DNA from: Pontiella sp. | GTDB lineage: Bacteria > Verrucomicrobiota > Kiritimatiellia > Kiritimatiellales > Pontiellaceae | NCBI GenBank assembly: GCA_050290185.1 | Contig: JBNKHE010000001.1 | Location: 482,713 to 546,712 of the forward strand | Reading direction: 5' to 3' | Length of the DNA: 64,000 nt | Part shown: positions 26,776-42,738 of the stretch, in pieces | Numbering within the stretch: position 1 is the stretch's first letter | Layout of the letters: each line of letters begins with the position of its first letter | Program-made: the position numbers and the translations under genes | The notes under the pieces: generated by a model | Database searches by the model: none | What the model was told of the DNA's origin: nothing | What the model saw: only the letters and a program-made list of their open reading frames with translations

Positions 26776-29172
26776 CTAAATCTTCTCAAGCGCATGCTCC
26801 CATTTGCTGTCGAGAGCCTTTGCCACGGCGTTTTCCTGAAGCCGGTCATACAGGTTGTGACTGGTGACGATATTTTTCATCGCCTCGAACATTTCATCCG
26901 GCGTACGGGCGCCAACCACTATGCCCGATCCGTGCGACTCGACGATTTCCTGCGGGCCTCCTTCGTTCGATACGATCGCCGGCAGGCCGCAGGCATGGGC
27001 TTCGAGCACCACGTTTCCGAACGTGTCGGTCAAGCTCGGGAAAACAAACATATCGGCGCTGGCATAGGCCTTGGCCAGTTCCTCGCCGTAGAGATAGCCG
27101 GTAAAAACAATCTGCGGATCATTGTATTTCAACTGCATCTCATCGCGCTGCGGGCCATCGCCCACGAGAATCAAATCGGCATTGCATCCGGATTCGATCA
27201 AGCGCGCAAACGCCTTGAGCATGACCTCGATATTCTTTTCCTTTGAGATGCGTCCGGCATAGATGAACTTGAAGCTGCCGTTCAGCCCGTATTCGTTCCA
27301 GAGTTCGCGGTTGCGGAAGGAGGGATTGAACTTGTCGCGGTTAATGCCGCGCGGCATGACTTCGATGTTTGCGCCATCAAAGCCACCATCCATCAACAAC
27401 CGCTTGTACTGCTTCGTTGGAACCAGAACCTGATCCACCTTGCCGTAGAACCAGCGCATGAAACGCCATGCCGTTTCACCGAGTTTTTCGTCCTCGGTGA
27501 TGTCGGCGAAGAAGCGCGGAAAATCGGTGTGGTAGATCCCCTTGGTCGACAGGCCCAGCATTTTGGCAGCCCCCAGCGCGCAGATGCCGAGGGGACCCGG
27601 TGTGGAGATGATGACCTCGTCAAATTCCTCCTGTTCGAAGTAGGCCAGCAGTTCCATGAAGGGCGGATAGCTGATGAGGAGCGATTCATATTCCGGCAGC
27701 TTGAACGAGCCAACCGGCTTGAAGTTCTTTATGGGAAAGTCGGCTACAGGATCTTCGTCCTGGCTAGTAATGACAGTGATGTCCTTTTCAACCCCCTTGG
27801 CCATGCCGGCCAGTGTACGGATGGTTTTCGTGACCCCGTTGACGTCGGAAAACGTATCGGTGACCCATGCCTTTTTCCCACTCTTCTGCCGCAACCCGGA
27901 CGAACCGGCGAAATGCTCCGTCACCTCGCGCAGAAACTTCTCATCCTTGTGCTGGGTCGAGAATGCCGTCAGGTACGGCGCAATGCCGAGCGCGACGGGT
28001 CCGAGCGAGGAGATCGCCTGCAACGAACCGATCAGCTCGCCGGAACGGATCTTCTTCGACGCCTTTTTCAGAAAGACAAAGCTCAACTCCTGGCTGAGTC
28101 GGCAAGCCGCCTTGAAGTTTACCGAATCCGTTTCGTCCTTAGGCACGGTGTCGTCAGATTCTTCGAGTACCCGGGAAAATTCTTCGATGATCATCTGTTC
28201 GATCTCGTTCATCTGCTTCTTGACGTAGGCCTGCTTGACCTTCTTCCGAAACGCCGCGCGCACGCTGGCGCGGAAGCCGGTGGCCTCGGGCTCTTTCTCG
28301 TTCGGCTGTTCCGCGAGGTTTTTCAAGACGGCACCCATCACCGAACGGTCCGGGGTGCCGGGTGCCAGAAAGCGGTCCTTATAGTAGCAGTAGGCAATCC
28401 GGTAGAGACTATTTGCCAGCCGCACGCTGGTTCCGCCGGTGCCGCCGGGTTCATGCTGTCCCTCCCGTACATATTCCAGAAAATCAATCACGCTCGGCGC
28501 ATGGGGAGTCACCGTGTAGGCACTGGCCACGTAAAGACCGCCGTGGTCGTCCGACCCGCCGGTCAATGTCTTGTTCCACGGCTCCAGACCAACCGGTTGG
28601 ATATCGTGGCGGTCGGCCATCTCGTTGATCATCTCCGGCGTCAGGCTCTTGAACACCACATTGCCGATATCGCAGGCACGCGGCACGCGCGAACCATTAA
28701 TACCCTCGAAGCGATTGAACATCAGGATCAGCTTTTCAAACTGGGCGATAGTCAACTTGTCATTGATGCGGAAGAGCGGATGGGCAATCGTATGGATAAC
28801 CCGGTTTTCATTCATGTACTGCTGCAGGTCATGGATGTTTTCCCGTAGACTCTGCATCTCATGGAACTGCTTTTCCGTGATGCCGGTCACGAGGCAGTGG
28901 ATCTTGCAGCCGTTTTCCGGGAAGTAGGTGGTCAGTTCGCTCGAAAGAAAAGTACCCGGCAGATGGGCGATCTCGCACGCGCCACGGATGCAGTTGTGGT
29001 CGGAGATGGTGACGTAGTCCATACCTGCCGCCTTGCAGGAATCATAGACGTCCAACGGCTCCATGAAACTTTCCGGCGCACCGATCCGGCGCAGGAACCA
29101 TTCGCTCGGGCGGTTGGAATATTTGCTATGAACATGTAGATCGGCCCTGGATATGCGCGTATTCGTTTTCAT
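26776..29172 (-). CDS. PHP phosphoesterase domain fused to GT4 glycosyltransferase
   Basis: N-term DLHVHS, ISDHN, AHP, GGSDDH (PHP metal ligands); C-term TDTFSDVNGV, YHTDFP, GRISKEKN, DTFGNVVLEA (GT-B/GT4). Confidence 0.85.
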   Translation of the reverse strand: MKTNTRISRADLHVHSKYSNRPSEWFLRRIGAPESFMEPLDVYDSCKAAGMDYVTISDHNCIRGACEIAHLPGTFLSSELTTYFPENGCKIHCLVTGITEKQFHEMQSLRENIHDLQQYMNENRVIHTIAHPLFRINDKLTIAQFEKLILMFNRFEGINGSRVPRACDIGNVVFKSLTPEMINEMADRHDIQPVGLEPWNKTLTGGSDDHGGLYVASAYTVTPHAPSVIDFLEYVREGQHEPGGTGGTSVRLANSLYRIAYCYYKDRFLAPGTPDRSVMGAVLKNLAEQPNEKEPEATGFRASVRAAFRKKVKQAYVKKQMNEIEQMIIEEFSRVLEESDDTVPKDETDSVNFKAACRLSQELSFVFLKKASKKIRSGELIGSLQAISSLGPVALGIAPYLTAFSTQHKDEKFLREVTEHFAGSSGLRQKSGKKAWVTDTFSDVNGVTKTIRTLAGMAKGVEKDITVITSQDEDPVADFPIKNFKPVGSFKLPEYESLLISYPPFMELLAYFEQEEFDEVIISTPGPLGICALGAAKMLGLSTKGIYHTDFPRFFADITEDEKLGETAWRFMRWFYGKVDQVLVPTKQYKRLLMDGGFDGANIEVMPRGINRDKFNPSFRNRELWNEYGLNGSFKFIYAGRISKEKNIEVMLKAFARLIESGCNADLILVGDGPQRDEMQLKYNDPQIVFTGYLYGEELAKAYASADMFVFPSLTDTFGNVVLEAHACGLPAIVSNEGGPQEIVESHGSGIVVGARTPDEMFEAMKNIVTSHNLYDRLQENAVAKALDSKWEHALEKI

Positions 29173-29275: not shown

Positions 29276-30514
29276 CTAGGGATTTGTCCCTGCCGGATCG
29301 GGAACGGGCTTTTCATCTCCAGTACGTGGTCCGGGACAGCGTCCAACGATTTCCGGAACCGTGCCGCCGGCGCGGATGACCTGAATGCGGTCGCCGATCA
29401 TCAAATCCAGTGCGCGCAGATGATCGAGACTGTGCAAGCTGGCGCGCTCCAGGGTTGCTCCATTGAGGTCAACCGGTTCGAACAGGGCCACAGGCGTAAG
29501 ACGCCCCGTATCTCCGCGCGTCCACTCCACACCAATCAAGCGGGTCTCCACCGGTACGGACTTGTACTTTCTGGCCAACGCACCATTCGGATAGCGCGCA
29601 GTCATACCCATGCGTTGGAAGGCGGCACAATCATTCAACCTGATTACAATGCCGTCCGTCGGAAAAGGAAGACCGGCTCGTTTCAGATTCAGCTCGTTTA
29701 CCTGCTCCACAACTTCACAACCGGAAACGGCATGGCATTCAACCACCGGAAATCCCCATCCCAATGCCAAGGTCAGGCCGTTGATCTGGGTTTGGGGCAT
29801 GAAATCGATTTCGACGACATCAAAAATACAGCATGCAAGACCTCGCTGTGCCACCTCGGATAGATCTTTCATCCGCAAGGTTCCTGCCGCGCTGTTTCGT
29901 GGACTCTTAAGGGGATTTTGACCGGCCTGTCTGCGGCGCACATTCAAGGTCTCAAAAGCATCGAAGGGCATGAACACCTCGCCGCGCACTTCCAATACAG
30001 CAGGTGCATTCGTCAACACCAGCGGAACGCATCCCGTCGCCATGATCTGCGGCGTAACATCCATACCGGAAAGGCCATCTCCACGCGTCAACGCACGAAC
30101 CAGCTTTCCCTCCCGATAACGCAACACGACCGTTAATCCATCAATCTTCGGTTCCACACAATAGGTTTCATTGGTGCCGCATTTCTTCAGAAAATCCGCT
30201 ACGGCCTGATCGGAATAGGCTTTTTTCAGACTTAGCATCGGACGGGTATGCGGCACAGGAGAGTCCATGTCGGGCACATCCGCCCCAACACTGAACAGAT
30301 CGGGAAGATCTGGATAGTCGCCCCGTAGCTCTTCATATTGCTCGCGCAACGCGTCATACGCCGCATCACTCATGATCGGGTCGCCGGCATTATAGTAGGC
30401 CTCATCGGCCTGCTGCAAAACCGACCGAAGTGCCGCCGCCTGCCGCGCCACCTGCTCCGGCGTCGCGAAACAGGAGAGGCAGACCAGACTAAGAATCAAG
30501 AGTTGGATGCGCAT
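29276..30514 (-). CDS. Minimal NAD+-dependent DNA ligase (Ia + adenylation + OB domains only) with signal-peptide-like N-terminus
   Basis: DEAYY/DAAYD (Ia), HTRPMLSL, EPKIDG, TRGDG, EVRGEVFM, PRNSAAGTLR, TGRLTPVA, RAGGTVPEI; ends before the Zn finger/HhH/BRCT; start MRIQLLILSLVCLSCFA at 30514. Confidence 0.85.
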   Translation of the reverse strand: MRIQLLILSLVCLSCFATPEQVARQAAALRSVLQQADEAYYNAGDPIMSDAAYDALREQYEELRGDYPDLPDLFSVGADVPDMDSPVPHTRPMLSLKKAYSDQAVADFLKKCGTNETYCVEPKIDGLTVVLRYREGKLVRALTRGDGLSGMDVTPQIMATGCVPLVLTNAPAVLEVRGEVFMPFDAFETLNVRRRQAGQNPLKSPRNSAAGTLRMKDLSEVAQRGLACCIFDVVEIDFMPQTQINGLTLALGWGFPVVECHAVSGCEVVEQVNELNLKRAGLPFPTDGIVIRLNDCAAFQRMGMTARYPNGALARKYKSVPVETRLIGVEWTRGDTGRLTPVALFEPVDLNGATLERASLHSLDHLRALDLMIGDRIQVIRAGGTVPEIVGRCPGPRTGDEKPVPDPAGTNP

Positions 30515-30617
30515 GCGTGCATGCTGGCACAATCAGACCGGCAGTCCAGCAAACATATAAGATAACTTTCTCTAGTCATCTCTTTCTTGCAAACAACTCC
30601 TTCGTGCGCGCGCGATA

Positions 30618-31787: not shown

Positions 31788-33500
31788 TCACTTAAAGATG
31801 GAATCGAAGCCCATGGCGGATTCGGAGGCGAAGTCGGGAACGGCCTTTTTGCCGAAGCGCTTCAGAAGCGGATAGAGCAAGGAGAGCATGTTGAGGGTGA
31901 CGATGCGGTCAACCAAGCGGTAACCGTGCTTGCCGCGGAACAGGATCCGGATCATCAGGCGCAGGTGCGCGCGGCGCAGCTTGAAGCGCGAAAAGTCGAG
32001 CATGACGGTGTAGCGCGGTTCTGCATATTTTATTTCATAGTCGACCTTCAGTTTTTCGAGGCGCGTAATCATTTCATCGTTAAAATCGCAGAAATAATAT
32101 TCGCGGACGGCGGCGATGATTTCGAAGGTGTCGTACTGGAACTTCAGGTCCTCGGAGGGCAAACCGAGCATGTTGACCAGATCCTGCATCCAGCGGATTT
32201 TTTCCAGCGCCATGTATCCCTGCTGCACGGTTTTTTCGCCGTTGGAGACGTAGCAACGCATAAACTTGCGCATGAAATGGTTGGCGACGATGTGCCGCCA
32301 GTAGACGGTGACCAGCGGCGGAACGCGCAGCCGGCGGAAATAGATCCGGCTCGAGGCGAAGTCCTCGATGTAGAGCAGTTCCTTGATGACCTCGTCGGAA
32401 AGCCGGAGCAGTTCCTGCAACGGTCGCCAATTCGGGTCGGGCCAGTGCGCGCGGTAGTATTGCTGGATGGCCTGGTCCGCGGAGATGCCGTCACGAAACA
32501 GGCGGACGGTGACATAGGCATTGATCTCGTTCCAAACTGCGTTTTCATCGAGCCAGGTGAGCCGTCGGAAACCGCTCCACCCCCCGGTCTGGCACCAGAC
32601 GGAGATGCCGGCAATGTTCTGGCCGACCAGCTTGTTGCGGATTTTTTCGTAGTCCCAGCCGATGAAGGAGGGATATTCGCCGAAGCCTTCGTATTCGCGC
32701 CGCGCCTGGAACTCGATCAACTTGCGGTGGCGGCCGCGGAAAAAGAGCCGGTTGAGCGGAAGGTAGCGGAAGAAGTCAGACGGGCCATGTTTCATGGAAA
32801 TGATGAGGTGGTCGCTTTCCACCCCCCGGAACACCTTGTCGAAGGTCTCAGAGTTCCAGATGAGGTCCCCCACTCCGCCGACGCCGACGCTCCATGTGCG
32901 GAAAATGAGCAGTTTGTCGAATTCCTCGAAGACCGGCAGCAGCGCCTGAAGCATCTTTCTGGCTTGCGACGGCCGGTGGATCATGATCCGGCTATGGAAG
33001 TCGCCCTCCACATCCACACCGTCGGCTTCGCCGATGCGGAAGACGATGCCCGCCACATCGGGGAACACCTCGAAAAGCTGGCGGCAGGCGTGGGCGGCGA
33101 AACGGCGAAGGGCCGGATCGCGCGAGGCAATGCTTCGCTCGATCTCCTCGTTGAAGAACAGCAGATCGGTGGTGACGAAAACCCGCATGCCGTATTCCGC
33201 CGCCGTATCGAAGAGGTCCCGAAACAACAGACGGTATTCCGCGATCTTGTTTTTCAGGCCGTCGGAATAGAATGGAAAGATGCAGCAATGCGCCAGATCG
33301 TCGAGCGTGATGGCGTTGTAGCCGGTTTCCGATGCCTTGCGGCAAAAGGTTTTAAAATCGGATTTGATTTGGGCGCAGCGTTCGGGATCGAGTCCACCGT
33401 CCCGCTCCAGATGCGAAAACGGGGCCTTTGACCAGTTGATGACCTTCTGATCACAGCCCCGGAAAAACGGCGCAATGCCGTCGATGATAAACAGGTTCAT
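31788..33500 (-). CDS. Hypothetical 570 aa protein, possibly a glycoside-hydrolase-like TIM barrel
   Basis: Long ORF 10 bp after the PhoB paralog; GYNAITLDD, FRIGEADG, IFRTW, KHGPSDFF, EFQARREYEG resemble alpha/beta barrel GH-type segments; family not certain. Confidence 0.6.
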   Translation of the reverse strand: MNLFIIDGIAPFFRGCDQKVINWSKAPFSHLERDGGLDPERCAQIKSDFKTFCRKASETGYNAITLDDLAHCCIFPFYSDGLKNKIAEYRLLFRDLFDTAAEYGMRVFVTTDLLFFNEEIERSIASRDPALRRFAAHACRQLFEVFPDVAGIVFRIGEADGVDVEGDFHSRIMIHRPSQARKMLQALLPVFEEFDKLLIFRTWSVGVGGVGDLIWNSETFDKVFRGVESDHLIISMKHGPSDFFRYLPLNRLFFRGRHRKLIEFQARREYEGFGEYPSFIGWDYEKIRNKLVGQNIAGISVWCQTGGWSGFRRLTWLDENAVWNEINAYVTVRLFRDGISADQAIQQYYRAHWPDPNWRPLQELLRLSDEVIKELLYIEDFASSRIYFRRLRVPPLVTVYWRHIVANHFMRKFMRCYVSNGEKTVQQGYMALEKIRWMQDLVNMLGLPSEDLKFQYDTFEIIAAVREYYFCDFNDEMITRLEKLKVDYEIKYAEPRYTVMLDFSRFKLRRAHLRLMIRILFRGKHGYRLVDRIVTLNMLSLLYPLLKRFGKKAVPDFASESAMGFDSIFK

Positions 33501-34220: not shown

Positions 34221-35690
34221 TTATCCCCGTGTCTTGGCGATGCGTTCGACCTGCTTGAGGTAATCGTTGATGTCATCGCGCGGCTTCAGCTCGTAAGCGC
34301 GGCGCAACAACGGAAGTGCATCCTGGTACTTGGCCTGACCCACCAGCAGCTGCCCTTCATAGAGCTTGGCCTCGGCCTCGTATTTTTCGATGTTGGCGGC
34401 GCGCTCGTAGTAGAACATCGCCTTTTCCGGAAGGTTGCGTCCATAGTGCTGGGCGAGCAGGATCAGGGCCTCGCCGTCGAGCGGGTCGACCTCCACCACC
34501 TGTTCGAGAATCTTCACCACATCCTCGCCGCCGCCTTCGGAAACGGCAATGCGCGCCTGCAGCTTAAGCAGTTCCTTGAGGTTGGTTTCGTCGAGCGCGC
34601 TCTTGTGTTCGGCCACGCGGTTCAGCATGCGCTTGGACTCCTCCAATGCGCCGCGCGAGGCGAGGATCTTGGCCGCGCGCAAGGCCTTGGAAGGATCGTT
34701 TCCGTTGTCGAGCTCGTAGGCGCGCAGATAGGCGTCGGCCGCCATGTCCCAGCGCGACTCGTTGACGTAGATGTCGGCCAGCATGGTCATGCTATCTGCC
34801 GAGGCTTTGCCCAGCGTGTTTACATATTCATAGTTTTCGGCGGCGCGCATCGGCTGCTTTAGGCCGAGATAGGCATTGGCCTGCAACAACCAGAAATCGG
34901 CATTGTCCGGCTGTTTCCGGATCAACGCGTCGCAAAGGCTGGCGGCATCGCCGTACTTCTGTTGCTTGAACAAGCTACGGGCAAGGCCGAGCTGCCAATC
35001 GAGCGTTTCCGGATCGAGCAGGATGGCCTGGCGGTAGGCGGATTCCGCGCACAGGTTGTTCTCGGTGGAGGCGTAGGCGAAGCCGAGCAGACCGTAGGCC
35101 GTGCTGGTGTTCCCGCCGAGCTCGATGGTCTTCGTCAGGTATGGCAGGGCCTTTTCAAAATCGCCGTTGCGGACCAGGATGAGACCGGCGTTCTTGTAGG
35201 CGCGGCGGAAGGTCCCGAACTTTCCGATCGCCTTGTCGTACCACGCCAGCGCGTCCTCGAGTTTTTCCTGCTGGAAGTAGAGGTTGCCGATGGTGAAGTC
35301 GAAGATGGCGGACGAGGAATCCTTCGTCATCTTCAGCAGTTGCTGCATGGCCTTGTCCATGTCGTCCTCCTTGGAGAGGATATCCATGACCTTCTGCATC
35401 TGCTCGCGCTCGACGGCGGTCACGCGCGGCTCGATATCCGCGTTCACGCCGTAGCTGCCGAGGAATTCCTGCTGGAACTTCTTGCTGTCCCAAATGGAAA
35501 GATCGGCCGCCGGGTTTGCTGTTTCGGCCGGCTTCTTGATCCGCCCCATGTCCGGTTCGGCCAATACCTGATTCTGGGCCGCCGTCCCTCCACTGGACAT
35601 GGCCGTCAGCAAGGCATCCATGTCGTCGGCCAAGGCCACGCCGCTGGCCAGCAGGCCAAGGATAATTAGTGATCGTTGCTTATTCATCAT
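34221..35690 (-). CDS. Secreted tetratricopeptide-repeat protein
   Basis: Signal peptide (ALA-DD), repeated TPR-like helices; usual last gene of DUF3450-ExbBD-TonB clusters. Confidence 0.85.
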   Translation of the reverse strand: MMNKQRSLIILGLLASGVALADDMDALLTAMSSGGTAAQNQVLAEPDMGRIKKPAETANPAADLSIWDSKKFQQEFLGSYGVNADIEPRVTAVEREQMQKVMDILSKEDDMDKAMQQLLKMTKDSSSAIFDFTIGNLYFQQEKLEDALAWYDKAIGKFGTFRRAYKNAGLILVRNGDFEKALPYLTKTIELGGNTSTAYGLLGFAYASTENNLCAESAYRQAILLDPETLDWQLGLARSLFKQQKYGDAASLCDALIRKQPDNADFWLLQANAYLGLKQPMRAAENYEYVNTLGKASADSMTMLADIYVNESRWDMAADAYLRAYELDNGNDPSKALRAAKILASRGALEESKRMLNRVAEHKSALDETNLKELLKLQARIAVSEGGGEDVVKILEQVVEVDPLDGEALILLAQHYGRNLPEKAMFYYERAANIEKYEAEAKLYEGQLLVGQAKYQDALPLLRRAYELKPRDDINDYLKQVERIAKTRG

Positions 35691-35699
35691 GTTGCATTC

Positions 35700-36356
35700 C
35701 TATTTTTGAAAGGTGATGGGCACACGCATCCGGAACTGGACGGGCTGGCCCTTGCGCTTGCCCGGTTCGAACTTCCACTGCTTCACGGCCTTGAGTGCCG
35801 GTTCGTTGAACGCCGGATGGGTTGTCTTTTGGACCTTCAGATCGCGGGTGCGGCCGGTCTTGTCGACCACGAACAGGACATAGACCGTACCCTGCATGTT
35901 CTTTTTCGCCAGCTCGCGTGGATAGATCGGCGCGGGCTGGTAGACCACGCGCGGCTTCTGGTCGAGATCGGAGAGCGAGAAGATGGCATCCACCGCTTCG
36001 CCGCCGCCGGTCACGCCACCGAGATCAATCTTGAAGTCGCCGCCGCCAAAGCCGCCGTCGCCCGGATTGAGCGCCAGTTCCAGCTGGGAGAGATCCAGCG
36101 GTTGCGCATCGATTGCCGGCGGAGGCGGAGGCTCCTCTTCCGGCTCGGGCTCTTCCTCCTCCATCGGAGGAGGCGGCGGAGGCGGCTCGAGGTTGGCTAC
36201 ATCCACGGTGCGGATGGTCAGATCCTTCGTCACCGGCTTGGTGATGACCTGCAAGACCGGCAGGATCATGAAGAGCGCCAGCGACACGACCAGCGCGAGC
36301 CCTAAATAGAACGCGTGGTTGGCCAGGGATTTTAAAAATTTAAGCAGGCTGTTCAC
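35700..36356 (-). CDS. tonB: Energy transducer TonB
   Basis: N-terminal TM, Pro/Glu-rich spacer, C-term PIYP...AVKQWKFEPG...VPITF. Confidence 0.92.
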   Translation of the reverse strand: MNSLLKFLKSLANHAFYLGLALVVSLALFMILPVLQVITKPVTKDLTIRTVDVANLEPPPPPPPMEEEEPEPEEEPPPPPAIDAQPLDLSQLELALNPGDGGFGGGDFKIDLGGVTGGGEAVDAIFSLSDLDQKPRVVYQPAPIYPRELAKKNMQGTVYVLFVVDKTGRTRDLKVQKTTHPAFNEPALKAVKQWKFEPGKRKGQPVQFRMRVPITFQK

Positions 36357-36362
36357 TATGGA

Positions 36363-36773
36363 TTATCCCTGTTTCTTGAGGGTCGCGATGCTGACCTTTT
36401 CGGCGCCGGCAAGCTTGGCTTCGTCGATCACGCGGACCAACAGGCCGGACTTGACGTTCTGGTCGGCCTGTACGATGACTGGCACCTCTTCCTTCTGCAT
36501 CATGCGCTTCACCAGCGGCTGCACACCGGCGATGCCGATTTCGCGGCCGCCGTAGACGACTTCACCCTTGTCAGTGATCGCCAGCAGAATACTGGTCTTT
36601 TCCAGATTCACCGACGAGGCCGCCTGCGGCTTGTCAACTTCCACGCCGGTTTCCTCCACGAAGGTGGTGGTTACGATGAAGAAAATGAGCAGGATGAATA
36701 CGCAGTCGATGAGCGGGGAAATATCCACGCCTGCTTCTGAATTGTCGTCGGTGTTGCTTCTAAATCGTGCCAT
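36363..36773 (-). CDS. exbD: Biopolymer transport protein ExbD
   Basis: DISPLIDCVFILLIFFIVTTTF, VIVQAD. Confidence 0.93.
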   Translation of the reverse strand: MARFRSNTDDNSEAGVDISPLIDCVFILLIFFIVTTTFVEETGVEVDKPQAASSVNLEKTSILLAITDKGEVVYGGREIGIAGVQPLVKRMMQKEEVPVIVQADQNVKSGLLVRVIDEAKLAGAEKVSIATLKKQG

Positions 36774-36812
36774 GTTGAACTCCGTGATGAGTGATACGTG
36801 AGGCGTGACTGA

Positions 36813-37436
36813 TCATGCCGCCTCAGATTTTTTCTGCTGTTTGTAAAGTCGCTGCGTGCAGACGGTCTGCAAGTGGGCGAGGAAGGCCTTGTATTGTTCG
36901 TGCTCGCGCGCCAGCTTGTACTGAAAGACGATGCCGGGAAGCGCGATGAGCAGGCCGGTTTCGGTGGTGATCAACGCTTCGGAAATACCGCTGGCCACCA
37001 TGCCCATGGTTTTGTCGCCGCCCGAGCCCGAAGCCAGCGCGGCGAACGTGGAGAGCATGCCGGTCACGGTGCCCAGCAGCCCAAGCAACGGCGCCACGCT
37101 CACGCAGGTCTGCATGACCTTCAGGTCACGGTCGAACGGGGCGATCTCGGTCTGGTGGAGTTCGTCGAAAAAGATTCCGATCTCCTTCAGCGAGGTCGCC
37201 CCCATCACAAACTGGATCATCCGGCCAACCGGACCGCGGCCCTTTTCCGGGTTCTTGGTCCATTGCTTCATTTTCTTTTCCGTGACGTAGAGATACCCTT
37301 TGCCCCGGATGCGGAAAAAGATGCTGTGTCCGAGGTAGAAGATGACCACGGCGTCGAACGCCAGGGCGATCATCCCCCACCCGCCTGAAGACCAGATCTC
37401 CAGGGCCTGCTGCCAAATTGACGTTGTTTCTTCCAT
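36813..37436 (-). CDS. exbB: MotA/TolQ/ExbB proton channel protein
   Basis: APLLGLLGTVTGM, GISEALITTETGL. Confidence 0.92.
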   Translation of the reverse strand: MEETTSIWQQALEIWSSGGWGMIALAFDAVVIFYLGHSIFFRIRGKGYLYVTEKKMKQWTKNPEKGRGPVGRMIQFVMGATSLKEIGIFFDELHQTEIAPFDRDLKVMQTCVSVAPLLGLLGTVTGMLSTFAALASGSGGDKTMGMVASGISEALITTETGLLIALPGIVFQYKLAREHEQYKAFLAHLQTVCTQRLYKQQKKSEAA

Positions 37437-37513
37437 TATGCGTGATCCGTGACGATTGAGACGTGATTCATTCTGCGTAGAGCATGTCTATGTTCAGTGT
37501 TCATCCGTGGCCG

Positions 37514-38893
37514 CTACGCTTCTTGAGGTGCGGTGCGCGTGGCGCGGTTCATGAACAGGATGGCGACCTGCTCCATGCGGTCGGTTATGCTCCGGGCCTT
37601 GCGCGAGAGAAAGGCATGGAGCACCAGCGCGAAGATCGCCACAACCAGTCCCAGTTCGGTGGTGATCAACGCTTCGGAGATCCCGCCGGAGAGCGTCTTC
37701 ACATCGCCTGAACCAAACACCGTGATCAGCTTGAAGGTGTTGATGATGCCGGTCACGGTACCCAGCAGACCCAGCAACGGAGCAGACGACGCACAGACCG
37801 CGATGAACGAGGTCCACTTGTTCACGCTCAGGCGCGTCGTGAGCATTTCCTCGTACATCACTTCTTCGACCAGATCCTTCGGCTCGTCGATATGCTCGAT
37901 GCCCGCCTTCAACATCGCGGCGGTCGGGCCCTTGATTTTGGCAACCTTCTCCAGCGCCTGGGCATGGTTGTTGTGCAGCATGGCCTTGAGCAGCGGCTGG
38001 ATCTCCTTTTCGGGCGGCATCGGAATCAGGGAAAGCTGGATCCACTTTCCGCAGGCAACGATTACGGCAAGGATGAACATGCCGACGATGGGATAGACCA
38101 CAAAACCGCCTTTTTTCAGATGCTCGCCGAGCGTTTCATGGGTTTCCTCGATCTTGCGCGCATTGCCCAGGCTCGGATCGAACGGAAAGATGCCCGACTT
38201 GTTTTTGACAGTGTCGCGTACCAGCTGCGCATTCGCGCCGTCGGAAAACGGCATCACGGTCGGCTCAAGCGAACCCAGGCGTTGCTCGGCGATGCCGGCC
38301 ATCGAACCGTCATCGGAAGCAAACAAGGCCACCGGACCAACGAGGGCGAAGTTCCCCTGCTTGACCAAGCCATCCTCGCCCGCCGCACTGCCGGCAAAGG
38401 CGGTCCCGCCGACCGCGTCCCGAAGACGCTTGATGGACGCTTCGACCAACGAGGTTTGCTTGATGAAGATTTCCTCGTCGGACAGGTTGGTATTGTCGGG
38501 GGCCAACACAGCGGTATCGATGACCTCCTTGTACTGGTCCAGTTCGGCAATGTGCAGGCGCGTCTGGAAGTTGCGGATGTATTCGCCGAGCAGGTTCGAG
38601 ATGTAGCTCTTTTCCCCCTGGCGCGACTTGATCTCGGAGCGCAGGTTGTTGAGATCGAGGTTGCGGCTGTCGAGCTGGCGCTGCACCCTCTGGTTCTCGA
38701 GGCGCACTTCCATGACCTCGTCTTCAAGGGCGTTGAGGCCTTTCACCATCGGCAGCTTTTCCTTGGCGATGTCCGCGCGGACCTTCGAAAGCTCCTGCAG
38801 GCTGTTTTCCAGTTTGGTCTCCATGTCGGCCGATTGCGCAAACGCACCTCCGGCACACAGCAATAGTAAAGTGATCGTATGCTTCATTTTCAT
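37514..38893 (-). CDS. Long ExbB-family (TtpC-like) protein with periplasmic coiled coil
   Basis: Signal peptide, coiled coil, FDPSLG, APLLGLLGTVTGIINTF, GGISEALITTELGL. Confidence 0.88.
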   Translation of the reverse strand: MKMKHTITLLLLCAGGAFAQSADMETKLENSLQELSKVRADIAKEKLPMVKGLNALEDEVMEVRLENQRVQRQLDSRNLDLNNLRSEIKSRQGEKSYISNLLGEYIRNFQTRLHIAELDQYKEVIDTAVLAPDNTNLSDEEIFIKQTSLVEASIKRLRDAVGGTAFAGSAAGEDGLVKQGNFALVGPVALFASDDGSMAGIAEQRLGSLEPTVMPFSDGANAQLVRDTVKNKSGIFPFDPSLGNARKIEETHETLGEHLKKGGFVVYPIVGMFILAVIVACGKWIQLSLIPMPPEKEIQPLLKAMLHNNHAQALEKVAKIKGPTAAMLKAGIEHIDEPKDLVEEVMYEEMLTTRLSVNKWTSFIAVCASSAPLLGLLGTVTGIINTFKLITVFGSGDVKTLSGGISEALITTELGLVVAIFALVLHAFLSRKARSITDRMEQVAILFMNRATRTAPQEA

Positions 38894-38897
38894 TTCC

Positions 38898-39647
38898 TCA
38901 GTTCACGCTGACGGGGAGCGGGATGAATTCCGCGACCTTTTCGTTTTTCAAAACGGCGATGGCGTCGGCCACCTTGGGGGCGATGGTGTTGTCGGCTTCC
39001 CACTTCCAGCCATCGGCGTCCGGGTAGCCGTAGCCGGCGATATCGCCCTTGTTGGTGCAGTAGTAGGCGCGGGCATATCCGATGTAGAGGGTCTGGACCT
39101 CAGCCTGGCTTCCGTCGGGCAGCTCCTTCGTTTCGCTCACGACCGTGATTTCGTTGGCGCCCTTGTTCAGCTCGTTGATGATGCCGATCACGTTCTGGTA
39201 GCGTTCGGAGAGCGACAGGTCGGTTTCCTCCGTCTTGGGAATGCGCTGGCTCAGCGGCTTGATGCGGTCCTGTACCGGCGACGGCAACGTCGGGAGCAGC
39301 GCGAGCACATTCCGTTCAAGAGTGAAGATCCGGTTGACCAACGTGGCAGATGCGTTCTTAAGCGAATCGTTTTCCTCTACCAGATCCTCGCGCTTCTTGT
39401 CCGCGCCGGTAATCAGCGACTGCGTCTCGTGGATCTTCTGCGAAAGCGTGTCCCGCTCGGAGCGGACGAGATCGATGCGGTCGCCGAGCATTTCGCGCTC
39501 CAGTTCCCACGTCTGCTTCTCCTCGGAGATCAGCTTGCGGGTTTCCACCCACTTCGAAAGCATCTCCTTGGTGCGATCCAGCTCCTGCGCCTGCACACAG
39601 GCCGCCGCGCCGGAAATGGCCAAAATCATCAGTAATTGTCTTTTCAT
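38898..39647 (-). CDS. DUF3450-like periplasmic coiled-coil protein
   Basis: Signal peptide, coiled coil, SLSERY, TLYIG...YY, W.W, ends PLPV; position between the TBDR and ExbB genes. Confidence 0.75.
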   Translation of the reverse strand: MKRQLLMILAISGAAACVQAQELDRTKEMLSKWVETRKLISEEKQTWELEREMLGDRIDLVRSERDTLSQKIHETQSLITGADKKREDLVEENDSLKNASATLVNRIFTLERNVLALLPTLPSPVQDRIKPLSQRIPKTEETDLSLSERYQNVIGIINELNKGANEITVVSETKELPDGSQAEVQTLYIGYARAYYCTNKGDIAGYGYPDADGWKWEADNTIAPKVADAIAVLKNEKVAEFIPLPVSVN

Positions 39648-39680
39648 GTTTACCTCGGGCTAGAGTTCTATTTTCAGATT

Positions 39681-39718
39681 GTTGGTTACGAGTGAGCGGT
39701 TTGTTAGCTGGCTGTTAC
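39681..39718 (-). promoter_or_regulatory. Candidate internal Pho box upstream of the DUF3450-ExbBD-TonB genes
   Basis: Plus-strand GTTGG 39681, GTGAG 39692, GTTAG 39703, GTTAC 39714: four units exactly 11 bp apart. Confidence 0.6.
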
Positions 39719-42700
39719 CATGTCCCTTTCACCCCCAGGCTGTACTCGATCCCTTTCGTGTAGGACGACTTGACGGTGTCTCCGGACAGGTGCTTGCTCC
39801 GGTAGACCTGCTGGATCTCCGGATCGGTCAGGTTCTTGGCCTTGAACGATAGCGAGAAGTGATCGGTCAGTTTCTGGGAGAGGGTAAAATTGAGTGTTGC
39901 GTGTTCCTTGGCATAGACATCGGGGAAGTATCCTTCGGATATGTTTGCCCCGGCCAGCAGGGCGTCGCCGTTGACGATGTAGAACAAACCCAGTTTGGTG
40001 CCCGAGCTGGCAATCCCGTAGGTGACGTTTGCGTTGTAGAGATATTCGGGAGCCCCCATCATGGCGCGCTTCGGCTCCGGATATCCGGCGCTCGCAAGCT
40101 CAACCGCATCGGCGTCTGAAAGCGTCACCTCCGAATCGATAAAGGTGGCGTTGGCACCGATGGCGAGCCCCTCGAGCGCATCCCAGAATTGTCCCAGCTG
40201 CTGGCGGCACTCGATCTCGTAGCCGGACAGCTTGCCTTCCGGATAATTAACCGCGGTAATATAGTCTTCAATGTTGGCTACATAGCCCTGAGTATATTCG
40301 ATCGGCTGGTCGACCTGCTTCTGAAACCAGGACATCGATACCAGACCGCCCGGATACGGCGCATAATCCACTCGCACGTCCTGATTTTTCAACGAACTCA
40401 TTTGGAGGAAGGGATTCCCCACGAACACATCGCCCCCGAGATATTCAACCTGCTGGATCGGCGTCAATTCCTTGAACGTCTGCCGGGCAACGGTTTCGCT
40501 GTAGGAAGCCCGCAAGGTCACGGTGTCGAGCGGCTTTAATTGCAACCCGTACGAAGGAAGGACATCGGTCTGGTGAAAATCCACATCCGCATCGCCTGCA
40601 TGAAGCTGCGATGCGCCGGACTCGCCCGGCTTGACCCACAGGACATCCTTCTCGGGATTGATCAGGGTGATGGCCAGATCGGTCGATTCAAACCGCGCCC
40701 CCCCGATCAGGGTCAGGTACGGGGTAACCGGCAGCTCGGCCATGTAGTACCAGGCCGAAAGGTCCTGCGAGCCTTCATAGTCCACATCGATGGTTGCGGC
40801 ATACAGGATATCGTTCGGGCCTGGATACTGATCGGTCCAGTATTCGGACCAGGGCAGTTTCGGCCCCGAGTAGGGATTGATGCTGTTATCGGCCGGGTTG
40901 CCGAAGTTGCTGTATGATTCCTGGTCATAGGTGCGTTCAACCGAGTCGCTGAACAAGCCGGTCTTCAGACTTCCTTCCTCACCCGACCACTGCTCGAACG
41001 GAATCTTCAGATTCAGGAAGTATTGATCGCTCTCCTCGGAAACGTCCTTCCACACCCGCTGCAGGTTCCCCAGCGTGGCCGATCCCGGCTTGTCCTGGTA
41101 GTATCCGGCATCCACCGTGTTGGTTGTAGGCGGTGCGCCGCGATAGCCCGGAATCACTTCCCGGTAACCGGGATTCCACAGCGATCCAAACAATCGCTTG
41201 TCGGGTTGCTTCAAAGCAGAGGTACTGTGCGCCAGCGTCCAATCCAGCTCCGGCTTGCCGAAGGAAAACCAATCCCCAGCTTCCCACTCCGGCACGGGCA
41301 AAACATGGTCGCCGCCCAACTGCAAGGTGGAGGTGTCGCGCTCGGTATAATTCAAGGTTTGGCTGCGGCGATAGGGCGCGGCGTTTGCATAGTCGGGGCT
41401 ATCATCCATGGCCATGGGATCGTACCCCGGAACCCGGGAGGTCACATAATAGTCCTTGCCGCGCGTATCCTCCGCCACAATCGCCTTGTCCTCGGCCACA
41501 TGCGTGGTCATGTACAACAGCGACAACGTTTGGTCATCCACTTCAAGTCCAACGGCTGCCAGCCCGCCCCATTGAACCTCGCTGGAACCCTGTTTAATAT
41601 CATAGAGACTGGTTTTGTAGTCGCTCGCAACATTGTTCAACGGATTGTCGCTTCCGGAAAAGAACGGCACCATTTGCCCGTTGCGTACCCACCACTTGTC
41701 GCTCCGCTTGTCATCGGTGTACGAGGCATCGGTTTTGTAGTAGAAGTTGGCCAGGCTCGCCACCTTTACGCCGTCGAAGAACGCCTTCTTGCCGCCGGCC
41801 GTCAACGACCAGTCGTACACGTCGGGCCGCTCACCGCGCGAAGTTCCAACCGCCCCCTTCCAGGTGGTGCCGGCGACTTGCTCATCGCGCCGCCCGTCAT
41901 TCAGCCCCCAGGTGCCAACCCCTCCGCCGGCATACGACAGAAACTCCCCATCGTCCGGCCATGAGTTTTTGTATTTCGATCCGATCGAAAATTTCAGGAG
42001 CCCATCCTCCGGCATGCTCTTGAGCACCACGTTGACCGACCCTCCGGAAGCATCGCCCTGCTGATCGGGCACGAAGGTCTTCGTAACCTGCACGCTTTCA
42101 ATCAGGGCACTGGGAAACTGGTCGAGCTGGACGGCGCGCTTGTCGGGATCGGCCGATGGCAGACGTACCCCATTCATCAGCGACACCACATAGCGGTCCG
42201 GCAAGCCGCGCACCACCGCATACTTGCCATCCTGCACAGTCGTGCCCGACACGAGGCTCAATGCCTGCGCCGCATCGGATACGCCGGCCTGGCCCATCAT
42301 ATCGGCACCGACCGAATCCATCAAAGCCGAGCTTTCCAAGCGCAGGTTGAGCAAGCCGATTTCCGACGCCCCCCCGAGCTGGATGTCGCGTACGACCAGT
42401 TCGTCCATATCCTCGTATTCGCCCGCCATTAGCGCATCGATTTCGGCCAGTTGCCCGGCACTGACCACGACTTGCGGCTTGGTCAGCCGCGTGTAGCCCG
42501 ACTTGCTGAAAAGCAGCGTATAGGCACCCGGCTCCACCCCTTCGAAGTAAAAGCTTCCGGCATCACCGGTTTGCGTCTCCTGCCCAGTTTCCGAAACACG
42601 GATCTTCACGCCGGGGAGCGGCACCTCAAAATCCGAATCGGTGACCGTGCCGCGTATACCGCCCAGTTGGGCATAGCTCCCTGCAGCAACCAGCCACAGA

Positions 42701-42738
42701 GCCGTGGGAAGCAACCATTTAAAAGCTCGTGTTACCAT
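39715..42738 (-). CDS. TonB-dependent receptor
   Basis: Signal peptide, N-terminal carboxypeptidase-regulatory-like domain, plug (VVRGLPDRY...VQLDQFPSALIESVQVTKT), beta-barrel with KNLTD and terminal aromatic W. Confidence 0.93.
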   Translation of the reverse strand: MVTRAFKWLLPTALWLVAAGSYAQLGGIRGTVTDSDFEVPLPGVKIRVSETGQETQTGDAGSFYFEGVEPGAYTLLFSKSGYTRLTKPQVVVSAGQLAEIDALMAGEYEDMDELVVRDIQLGGASEIGLLNLRLESSALMDSVGADMMGQAGVSDAAQALSLVSGTTVQDGKYAVVRGLPDRYVVSLMNGVRLPSADPDKRAVQLDQFPSALIESVQVTKTFVPDQQGDASGGSVNVVLKSMPEDGLLKFSIGSKYKNSWPDDGEFLSYAGGGVGTWGLNDGRRDEQVAGTTWKGAVGTSRGERPDVYDWSLTAGGKKAFFDGVKVASLANFYYKTDASYTDDKRSDKWWVRNGQMVPFFSGSDNPLNNVASDYKTSLYDIKQGSSEVQWGGLAAVGLEVDDQTLSLLYMTTHVAEDKAIVAEDTRGKDYYVTSRVPGYDPMAMDDSPDYANAAPYRRSQTLNYTERDTSTLQLGGDHVLPVPEWEAGDWFSFGKPELDWTLAHSTSALKQPDKRLFGSLWNPGYREVIPGYRGAPPTTNTVDAGYYQDKPGSATLGNLQRVWKDVSEESDQYFLNLKIPFEQWSGEEGSLKTGLFSDSVERTYDQESYSNFGNPADNSINPYSGPKLPWSEYWTDQYPGPNDILYAATIDVDYEGSQDLSAWYYMAELPVTPYLTLIGGARFESTDLAITLINPEKDVLWVKPGESGASQLHAGDADVDFHQTDVLPSYGLQLKPLDTVTLRASYSETVARQTFKELTPIQQVEYLGGDVFVGNPFLQMSSLKNQDVRVDYAPYPGGLVSMSWFQKQVDQPIEYTQGYVANIEDYITAVNYPEGKLSGYEIECRQQLGQFWDALEGLAIGANATFIDSEVTLSDADAVELASAGYPEPKRAMMGAPEYLYNANVTYGIASSGTKLGLFYIVNGDALLAGANISEGYFPDVYAKEHATLNFTLSQKLTDHFSLSFKAKNLTDPEIQQVYRSKHLSGDTVKSSYTKGIEYSLGVKGTW

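Follow-up and report, generated by a model that had tools for sequence, protein, structure and literature searches.

A conserved family of minimal NAD+-dependent DNA ligase paralogues with a predicted export signal in the order Kiritimatiellales

We identified in Pontiella sp. a gene for a minimal NAD+-dependent DNA ligase paralogue belonging to a conserved and apparently undescribed family, whose members carry a leader predicted to direct export, have no DNA clamp and, judging from their sequences, would act as accessory NAD+-ligase cores beside a full-length ligA. The gene lies in the 64,000-nucleotide stretch of contig JBNKHE010000001.1 analysed here (hereafter the window). The open reading frame that the initial annotation had placed at positions 29276..30514 is real and runs on the minus strand (30514..29276), with the ATG at 30514 and the TAG at 29278-29276, encoding 412 aa (P0001); the plus strand of this interval is interrupted by stops. 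The features of the gene are as follows.

29276..30514, minus strand: minimal NAD+-dependent ligase paralogue, 412 aa, consisting of leader, domain Ia, nucleotidyltransferase domain and OB domain
30464..30514, minus strand: predicted Sec/SPase I signal peptide, residues 1-17, with a basic n-region, a short hydrophobic core, C at -3 and A at -1; found in 111/120 homologues
30260..30463, minus strand: domain Ia (NAD+/NMN-binding), with Y40, D50, Y53 and D54 corresponding to E. coli LigA Y22, D32, Y35 and D36; weak match to Pfam PF22745
30221..30223, minus strand: Lys98, replacing LigA Asn84, common to the leader-bearing ligases examined and LigB
29561..30259, minus strand: nucleotidyltransferase domain (Pfam PF01653, E 9e-60), with the K123 codon at 30146-30148
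29315..29548, minus strand: OB domain (Pfam PF03120, E 4e-21)
29276..29326, minus strand: conserved C-terminal tail (R397, G399, E401, P407) and stop codon, ending just ahead of the position of the first Zn-finger Cys of LigA

Pfam models matched the 412-aa protein at residues 86-318 (adenylation) and 323-400 (OB), and weakly at 29-69 (Ia, E 9e-4, below the cut-off); none of the Zn finger, HhH and BRCT models did, in agreement with the earlier claim that HhH and BRCT are absent and that the protein ends at the Zn-finger boundary of LigA. The next gene downstream starts at 29172, leaving an intergenic gap of 103 bp, where about 100 bp had been stated. GC3 is 0.60 in the minimal-ligase gene versus 0.67-0.78 in its neighbours. 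All of the motifs listed in the initial annotation, EPKIDG (K123), EVRGEV (E179), DGIVIR, ALARKY and RAGGTVP, were found.

The nucleotidyltransferase domain holds the KxDG motif together with motifs III, IIIa, IV and V, as expected for an NAD+-ligase core. Seven residues, K123, D125, R144, E179, R206, D287 and K316 (K115, D117, R136, E173, R200, D285 and K314 in E. coli LigA), are invariant in the top 120 homologues, as is F231, a Phe that replaces Y225 of E. coli LigA in all of them, and R144, R206, R224 and R381 are retained in the family. Although the Pfam match of domain Ia is weak, its NMN-binding Tyr and Asp residues are present in 109-119 of the 120 sequences (Y40 in 117, D50 in 109 with Asn in 10, Y53 in 119 and D54 in 118). 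The accessible text of PMC7470946 assigns these motifs to cofactor binding. The Arg in motif IV (DGIVIR) is present as described, but it is not an oddity of this gene, since the family has Lys in 76 and Arg in 41 of 120 sequences at the position of LigA K290. By alignment, the family keeps the catalytic and NAD+-binding residues of LigA, and activity is predicted.

The short form was found in 21 of the 41 related genomes searched, including the source genome, and its carriers fall in three families of one order; among the high-quality genomes it occurs in 15 of 23. A longer second LigA match is present in 19 of the 21 carriers. The full-length ligA whose presence elsewhere in the source genome the initial annotation had asked to confirm does exist, as a separate 683-aa gene on contig C9, and the minimal ligase shares 37% identity with it. 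When a 50-row profile was run on a sample of the phylum, family-level scores were obtained in 10 of 15 genomes of the order versus 0 of 236 elsewhere. Named homologues come from Pontiella, Tichowtungia and other Kiritimatiellales; Tichowtungia aerotolerans and Pontiella sulfatireligans each have a member (P0064, P0070), and a divergent protein of 415 aa in the family bears the label Puniceicoccaceae. The top 120 homologues include 114 with lengths of 402-438 aa; family members end on the conserved tail just before the first Cys of LigA, and none of the 120 has a Zn, HhH or BRCT match. The median dN/dS is 0.20 (range 0.12-0.32) over the 129 pairs, out of 351, whose pS is under 0.70, as estimated by a simple counting method and with many pairs near saturation; for the two closest pairs it is 0.22 and 0.15. 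The search for homologues of the same architecture and the dN/dS analysis, both proposed earlier, thus gave a leader in 111 of the top 120 homologues and a ratio near 0.2, and full-length genes at this locus, which would have pointed to a recent truncation, were not seen, the relatives being short as well. In the copy at locus L013 (G014:C79) the protein ends at 379 aa, and a separate OB fragment lies at G014:C40:11696-11935.

The initial annotation had also raised the caveat of a decaying duplicate, noting that the frame beyond the TAG reads PYRPVC, weakly like an eroded CPVC Zn knuckle. We attribute this resemblance to chance: a knuckle-like pattern past the stop occurs at 1 of 26 loci, namely this gene, and the Zn finger of the genome's own LigA, searched against the 3' gap, gave no match (best E 0.94). 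In several relatives the next gene begins within a few bases of the stop of the short form. The caveat is rejected, since the relatives are also short, dN/dS is low and the leader is conserved; the short form is a conserved family under purifying selection and not a decaying duplicate.

The Sec-like leader described earlier exceeds what chance would give. By our own feature-count rule it is kept in 111 of 120 homologues (the other 9 were dropped for cut or miscalled N-termini, or for lack of the aligned Pro) versus 0 of 213 ordinary LigA, although the homologues are kin, so that these counts measure conservation rather than independent trials. Applied to the proteins as called, this crude rule passes 107 of 120 family members and 0 of 213 full-length LigA. 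The leader is 17-18 residues long in 104 of the 111, with an early Lys or Arg in 110, a hydrophobic core in 111, and small residues at -3 (Cys/Val/Ser/Gly) and -1 (Ala/Gly/Ser/Thr) in 111, mostly Cys at -3 (100) and Ala at -1 (104); acidic residues beyond position 6 are found in only 4. By our rule this is a Sec/SPase I pattern, with a basic n-region, a hydrophobic h-region and small residues at -3/-1, and neither a lipobox (2/111) nor a twin-Arg-like motif (13/111) is conserved. Ribosome-binding motifs precede the leader Met at 16 of 26 loci, against a background of 8%, which fixes the start codon; the gene for P0001 is one of the 10 loci without such a motif. A 9-mer at 30521-30529 (minus strand) recurs 6-7 bases ahead of the start codon in three motif-less loci (this gene, L003 and L034), with no positional peak genome-wide. 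We therefore take the leader to be a predicted Sec-type export signal that is conserved across the family.

The OB domain and the tail conserve W331, G337, P341, P387 and R397, plus the near-invariant R381 (LigA R379; 119/120). In contrast, the equivalent of LigA R333 has been lost (A in 41, E in 39 and D in 13 of 120), the position of D382 is Gly in 118 of 120, and that of V383 is Ser, Thr or Ala. In LigA, R333 and V383 presumably contact DNA, and D382 is likewise taken here as a DNA-contact position. Four fixed basic residues are absent from the LigA of the order, namely K98 (120/120), K203 (115/120), R315 (120/120) and K/R338 (120/120), and the median net charge over the shared span is -2 in the family versus -8 to -17 in 11 LigA, though P0001 itself, at -9, is LigA-like. 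The gained basic residues and the less acidic span might compensate for the lost clamp. According to the accessible text of PMC7470946, HhH provides essential DNA binding in NAD+ ligases and is positioned by the Zn finger, and the available part of a Prochlorococcus preprint (10.1101/2020.05.11.089284) terms the OB, Zn finger and DNA-binding domains essential.

When 1.84 billion representatives were searched with a profile, the family came first, followed by ordinary LigA, among them 9 longer proteins with hydrophobic leaders. Among the longer leader-bearing LigA, P0124, P0126, P0137, P0144 and P0211 form a graded series of C-terminal loss, in which P0126 (three members, 501 aa) ends inside the HhH region. 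In family f30, which we took as Opitutaceae by its clustering with the named P0203 and P0260, 12 of 20 genomes have two or more LigA matches, and the 11 extra copies examined all carry a leader (by eye), some with and some without BRCT. The Opitutaceae-type second LigA with a leader comprise L116, L118, L122, L124, L130, L131, L132, L137, L138, L141, L142 and L144, and further leader-bearing LigA of this type are P0203, P0230, P0250 and P0260. The leaders of these separately derived paralogues differ, yet share their layout. In a quick IQ-TREE tree of the core (81 rows, omitting LigB and loci L123, L125, L128, L134-136 and L145), the minimal family forms one group (support 99) whose neighbour is a 501-aa leader-bearing protein with a Zn finger and part of HhH (93), and both are nested in a leader-bearing group mostly without BRCT (96/93), whereas the Opitutaceae leader-bearing paralogues group with the LigA of their own hosts (100). 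With 39-40 rows, the approximately unbiased test rejected a clade of the minimal family with the order's LigA (p-AU 0.0014) and a single clade of all leader-bearing rows (p-AU 0.014). Leader-bearing LigA thus arose at least two times, or once with a reversal in Opitutaceae. The simplest reading of the minimal form, with the root uncertain, would be stepwise C-terminal loss from a longer leader-bearing LigA. Across the phylum, the best LigA score of many genomes (f25, f32, f36 and others) reaches only about 1e-35, 5 of 251 have none at 1e-30, and L134 and L135 match profile positions 260-395 only; the weak scores suggest a divergent or split replicative ligase in that lineage.

At the position of LigA Asn84, all 34 leader-bearing rows and E. 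coli LigB carry Lys, as against 0 of 47 cytoplasmic rows, although the column was picked by scanning these same rows and some of them were retrieved with a Lys-bearing profile. That retrieval bias does not affect the three LigB, nor the 12 paralogues taken from genomes together with 9 cytoplasmic partners. In a wider set, Lys occurs at this position in 9 of 10 proteins with a hydrophobic leader versus 8 of 350 without, and in 0 of 74 further loci, so Lys84 is strongly linked to the leader without being exclusive to it. Three of three enterobacterial LigB (L031:1989-3671, L147:101-1771 and L148:80-1756) have both a signal-peptide-like start and Lys84. Like the minimal family, LigB (NF005987) is a second NAD+ ligase beside LigA that begins with a leader-like segment and has Lys in place of Asn84, and it agrees with many family members in replacing Tyr225 by Phe and Lys290 by Arg and in having Lys at 336; unlike them it keeps HhH and has 560 aa, with 25% identity to the minimal ligase, which scores 157 bits on the LigB family model NF005987 against a cut-off of 498. 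The tree search placed LigB beside the minimal family on a very long branch, and a grouping of LigB with E. coli LigA was not rejected either (p-AU 0.46). In its accessible text, PMC5507437 puts LigB activity under 1% of that of LigA and interprets the DNA-damage phenotypes of LigB as cytoplasmic, and that text holds no mention of signal, membrane or periplasm.

Housekeeping genes neighbour the short form; their set is stable within one family and varies in the other, and no DNA-uptake gene was found as a conserved neighbour. In the window, the gene is flanked at 26776-29172 (minus strand) by the gene for a 798-aa fusion of an N-terminal PHP-like part, recognised by motif, with a GT4 glycosyltransferase; 31788-33500 (minus strand) encodes a protein of 570 aa whose sole match, a weak one, is to the GH67 middle domain (E 8e-4, below the cut-off); and 34221-42738 (minus strand) holds, by sequence, a TonB-dependent receptor, ExbB/ExbD-like, TonB and TPR genes and then a response regulator. 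ComEC is found in the source genome and in 39 of 43 relatives, carriers or not; it is near-universal in the order and does not track the short form. Only 3 of 22 carriers have a short HhH frame resembling ComEA, and the source genome has five strong matches to secretion/pilus ATPases. When a LigA profile was run over the six frames of this genome (95.5% complete) for a second HhH, BRCT or Zn gene, only ligA and ordinary repair proteins (UvrC-, RecD2-, RadC-, DprA- and PolA-like by sequence, none with a leader) were found; one HHH_3 match is in a 772-aa frame. No HhH gene appeared among the 52 of 76 neighbour ORFs scanned. PF01068 has no match in the source genome, nor was PnuC found there, and the ATP-dependent ligase family occurs in 1 of 76 genomes of the order, so no LigE fills the role there.

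The minimal ligase departs from replicative LigA (E. coli 2OWO/5TT5, T. filiformis 1V9P; TIGR00575) in its predicted export signal, in the absence of Zn finger, HhH and BRCT, in the Lys that replaces Asn84, in an altered OB loop and in an accessory role, and it falls below the NCBIfam cut-offs (333 vs 369 for TIGR00575; 332 vs 444 for NF005932). LigE is alike in consisting of a leader and the catalytic core only, in being accessory and in having no conserved gene context, and its proposed role is on extracellular or incoming DNA; the accessible parts of PMC7470946 and PMC10799422 describe it as sealing nicks with nucleotidyltransferase and OB domains only and as carrying a leader. LigE differs in being ATP-dependent (PF01068), without Ia and nearly confined to Proteobacteria, whereas the minimal ligase has PF01653 and Ia. 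LigE is thus a putative functional analogue and not a family relative. The PR1 phage ligase (PDB 9HU3, 9I5I) shares the three domains in one of its subunits but is viral and, by its entry title, has a second subunit, for which no partner gene was found in the source genome. In ESM Atlas, these domains also occur together in phage clusters of 330-430 aa and in one cluster from Pseudomonadota (403 aa). ND-Lig tr of Prochlorococcus is, according to the available part of 10.1101/2020.05.11.089284, another short LigA-derived clade beside another ligase, but it has under 260 aa, lacks OB, lies in genomic islands, has no reported leader and is presumed inactive.

We give about an even chance to the reading that the minimal ligase is a periplasmic NAD+-dependent counterpart of LigE, exported by Sec and sealing nicks in incoming, extracellular or matrix DNA without a clamp. 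The protein would be cleaved after Ala17 and released into the periplasm, where NAD+ would form lysyl-AMP on K123 with release of NMN; the nucleotidyltransferase and OB domains alone, aided by the new basic residues K98, K203, R315 and K/R338, would bind the nick much as LigE does, and the nicks sealed would be those of DNA that enters through ComEC or resides in the extracellular matrix. As a guess, lysed neighbours might supply the periplasmic NAD+ along with the DNA. The weakest links of this reading are activity without HhH and the NAD+ supply.

Three other accounts of a functional enzyme have to be weighed. An exported protein might self-adenylate from NAD+ without finishing a ligation, passing AMP to DNA or RNA 5' ends (for capping, protection or marking) or to another acceptor, or serving as an NAD+/NMN binder. 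The intact first-step residues, the missing clamp, the changed OB positions R333, D382 and V383 and the lack of association with uptake genes are consistent with this, as are the very poor ligation by LigB, the nearest described analogue, given in the accessible text of PMC5507437, and the NAD+ binding of isolated LigA adenylation domains, used as a sensor (by the titles of PDB 1TAE and 8JYD). But the conserved OB and tail residues and the gained basic residues suit a nucleic-acid substrate, and longer leader-bearing paralogues keep the Zn finger and HhH, implying that the exported lineage began as DNA-encircling ligases; we hold this account unlikely, though deserving attention. A two-chain exported ligase, in which the short form is the catalytic subunit and needs a separate DNA-binding partner like the PR1 phage heterodimer, is suggested by the 339-aa chain of PDB 9HU3/9I5I, which matches profile positions 28-392 and is titled a heterodimeric ligase on nicked DNA, and by the phage clusters of similar length and domains. 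The six-frame search, which found no second LigA-like HhH, BRCT or Zn gene and none with a leader, and the neighbour scan argue against it, a partner of another fold lying outside that search, and we consider it improbable. Slightly less improbable, in our judgement, is that the leader does not direct export in the living cell and that the protein works as a weak accessory repair ligase in the cytoplasm or on an inner-membrane tether: the leader has just 17-18 residues with a short hydrophobic core, and NAD+ and chromosomal DNA are cytoplasmic. The textbook SPase I pattern, a leader too short for a membrane anchor, a charge orientation that places the enzyme outside, and the dissimilar leaders of equal layout in separately derived paralogues speak for export instead. 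LigB, with a similar leader, has damage phenotypes read as cytoplasmic in the available portion of PMC5507437, which favours the non-exported account.

A recently truncated, decaying ligA duplicate seems to us exceedingly improbable. The patchy presence in high-quality genomes, the 379-aa L013 copy and the lower GC3 would fit decay, but the uniform length and domain content of 114 of 120 homologues, the dN/dS of 0.12-0.32, the distance from the genome's own ligA, the rejected clade with the order's LigA and the relatives without a knuckle remnant are against it.

In the accessible parts of the literature searched, including PMC7470946, PMC5507437, PMC10799422, PMC10140301, PMC8455567, PMC12133292, PMC6212786 and bioRxiv 2020.05.11.089284, we found no description of an exported NAD+ ligase or of this family, although subscription papers or supplements could mention the LigB leader or list such proteins. 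In reviews, NAD+ ligases are presented as a uniform group whose appended domains are highly conserved, and minimal or periplasmic enzymes are attributed to the ATP class alone; the family breaks both rules. More broadly, and tentatively, with the odds in our view somewhat against it, exported NAD+ ligases may be an unrecognised, repeatedly evolved class marked by Lys84 and comprising the minimal Kiritimatiellales enzyme, the Opitutaceae leader-bearing LigA paralogues and E. coli LigB, in which the minimal form seals DNA and NAD+ is usable in the periplasm. The Lys84 signature predicts that E. coli LigB may be exported, which bears on a 25-year-old puzzle. If such a class exists, no single-chain NAD+ ligase before the minimal form would have been seen to seal DNA while lacking Zn finger, HhH and BRCT, and the periplasm would be a place where NAD+ can serve as cofactor. 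The family would offer a natural test of whether the LigA core alone can seal DNA, and it would add an independent second case to the question of what exported ligases do and from where they draw their cofactor.
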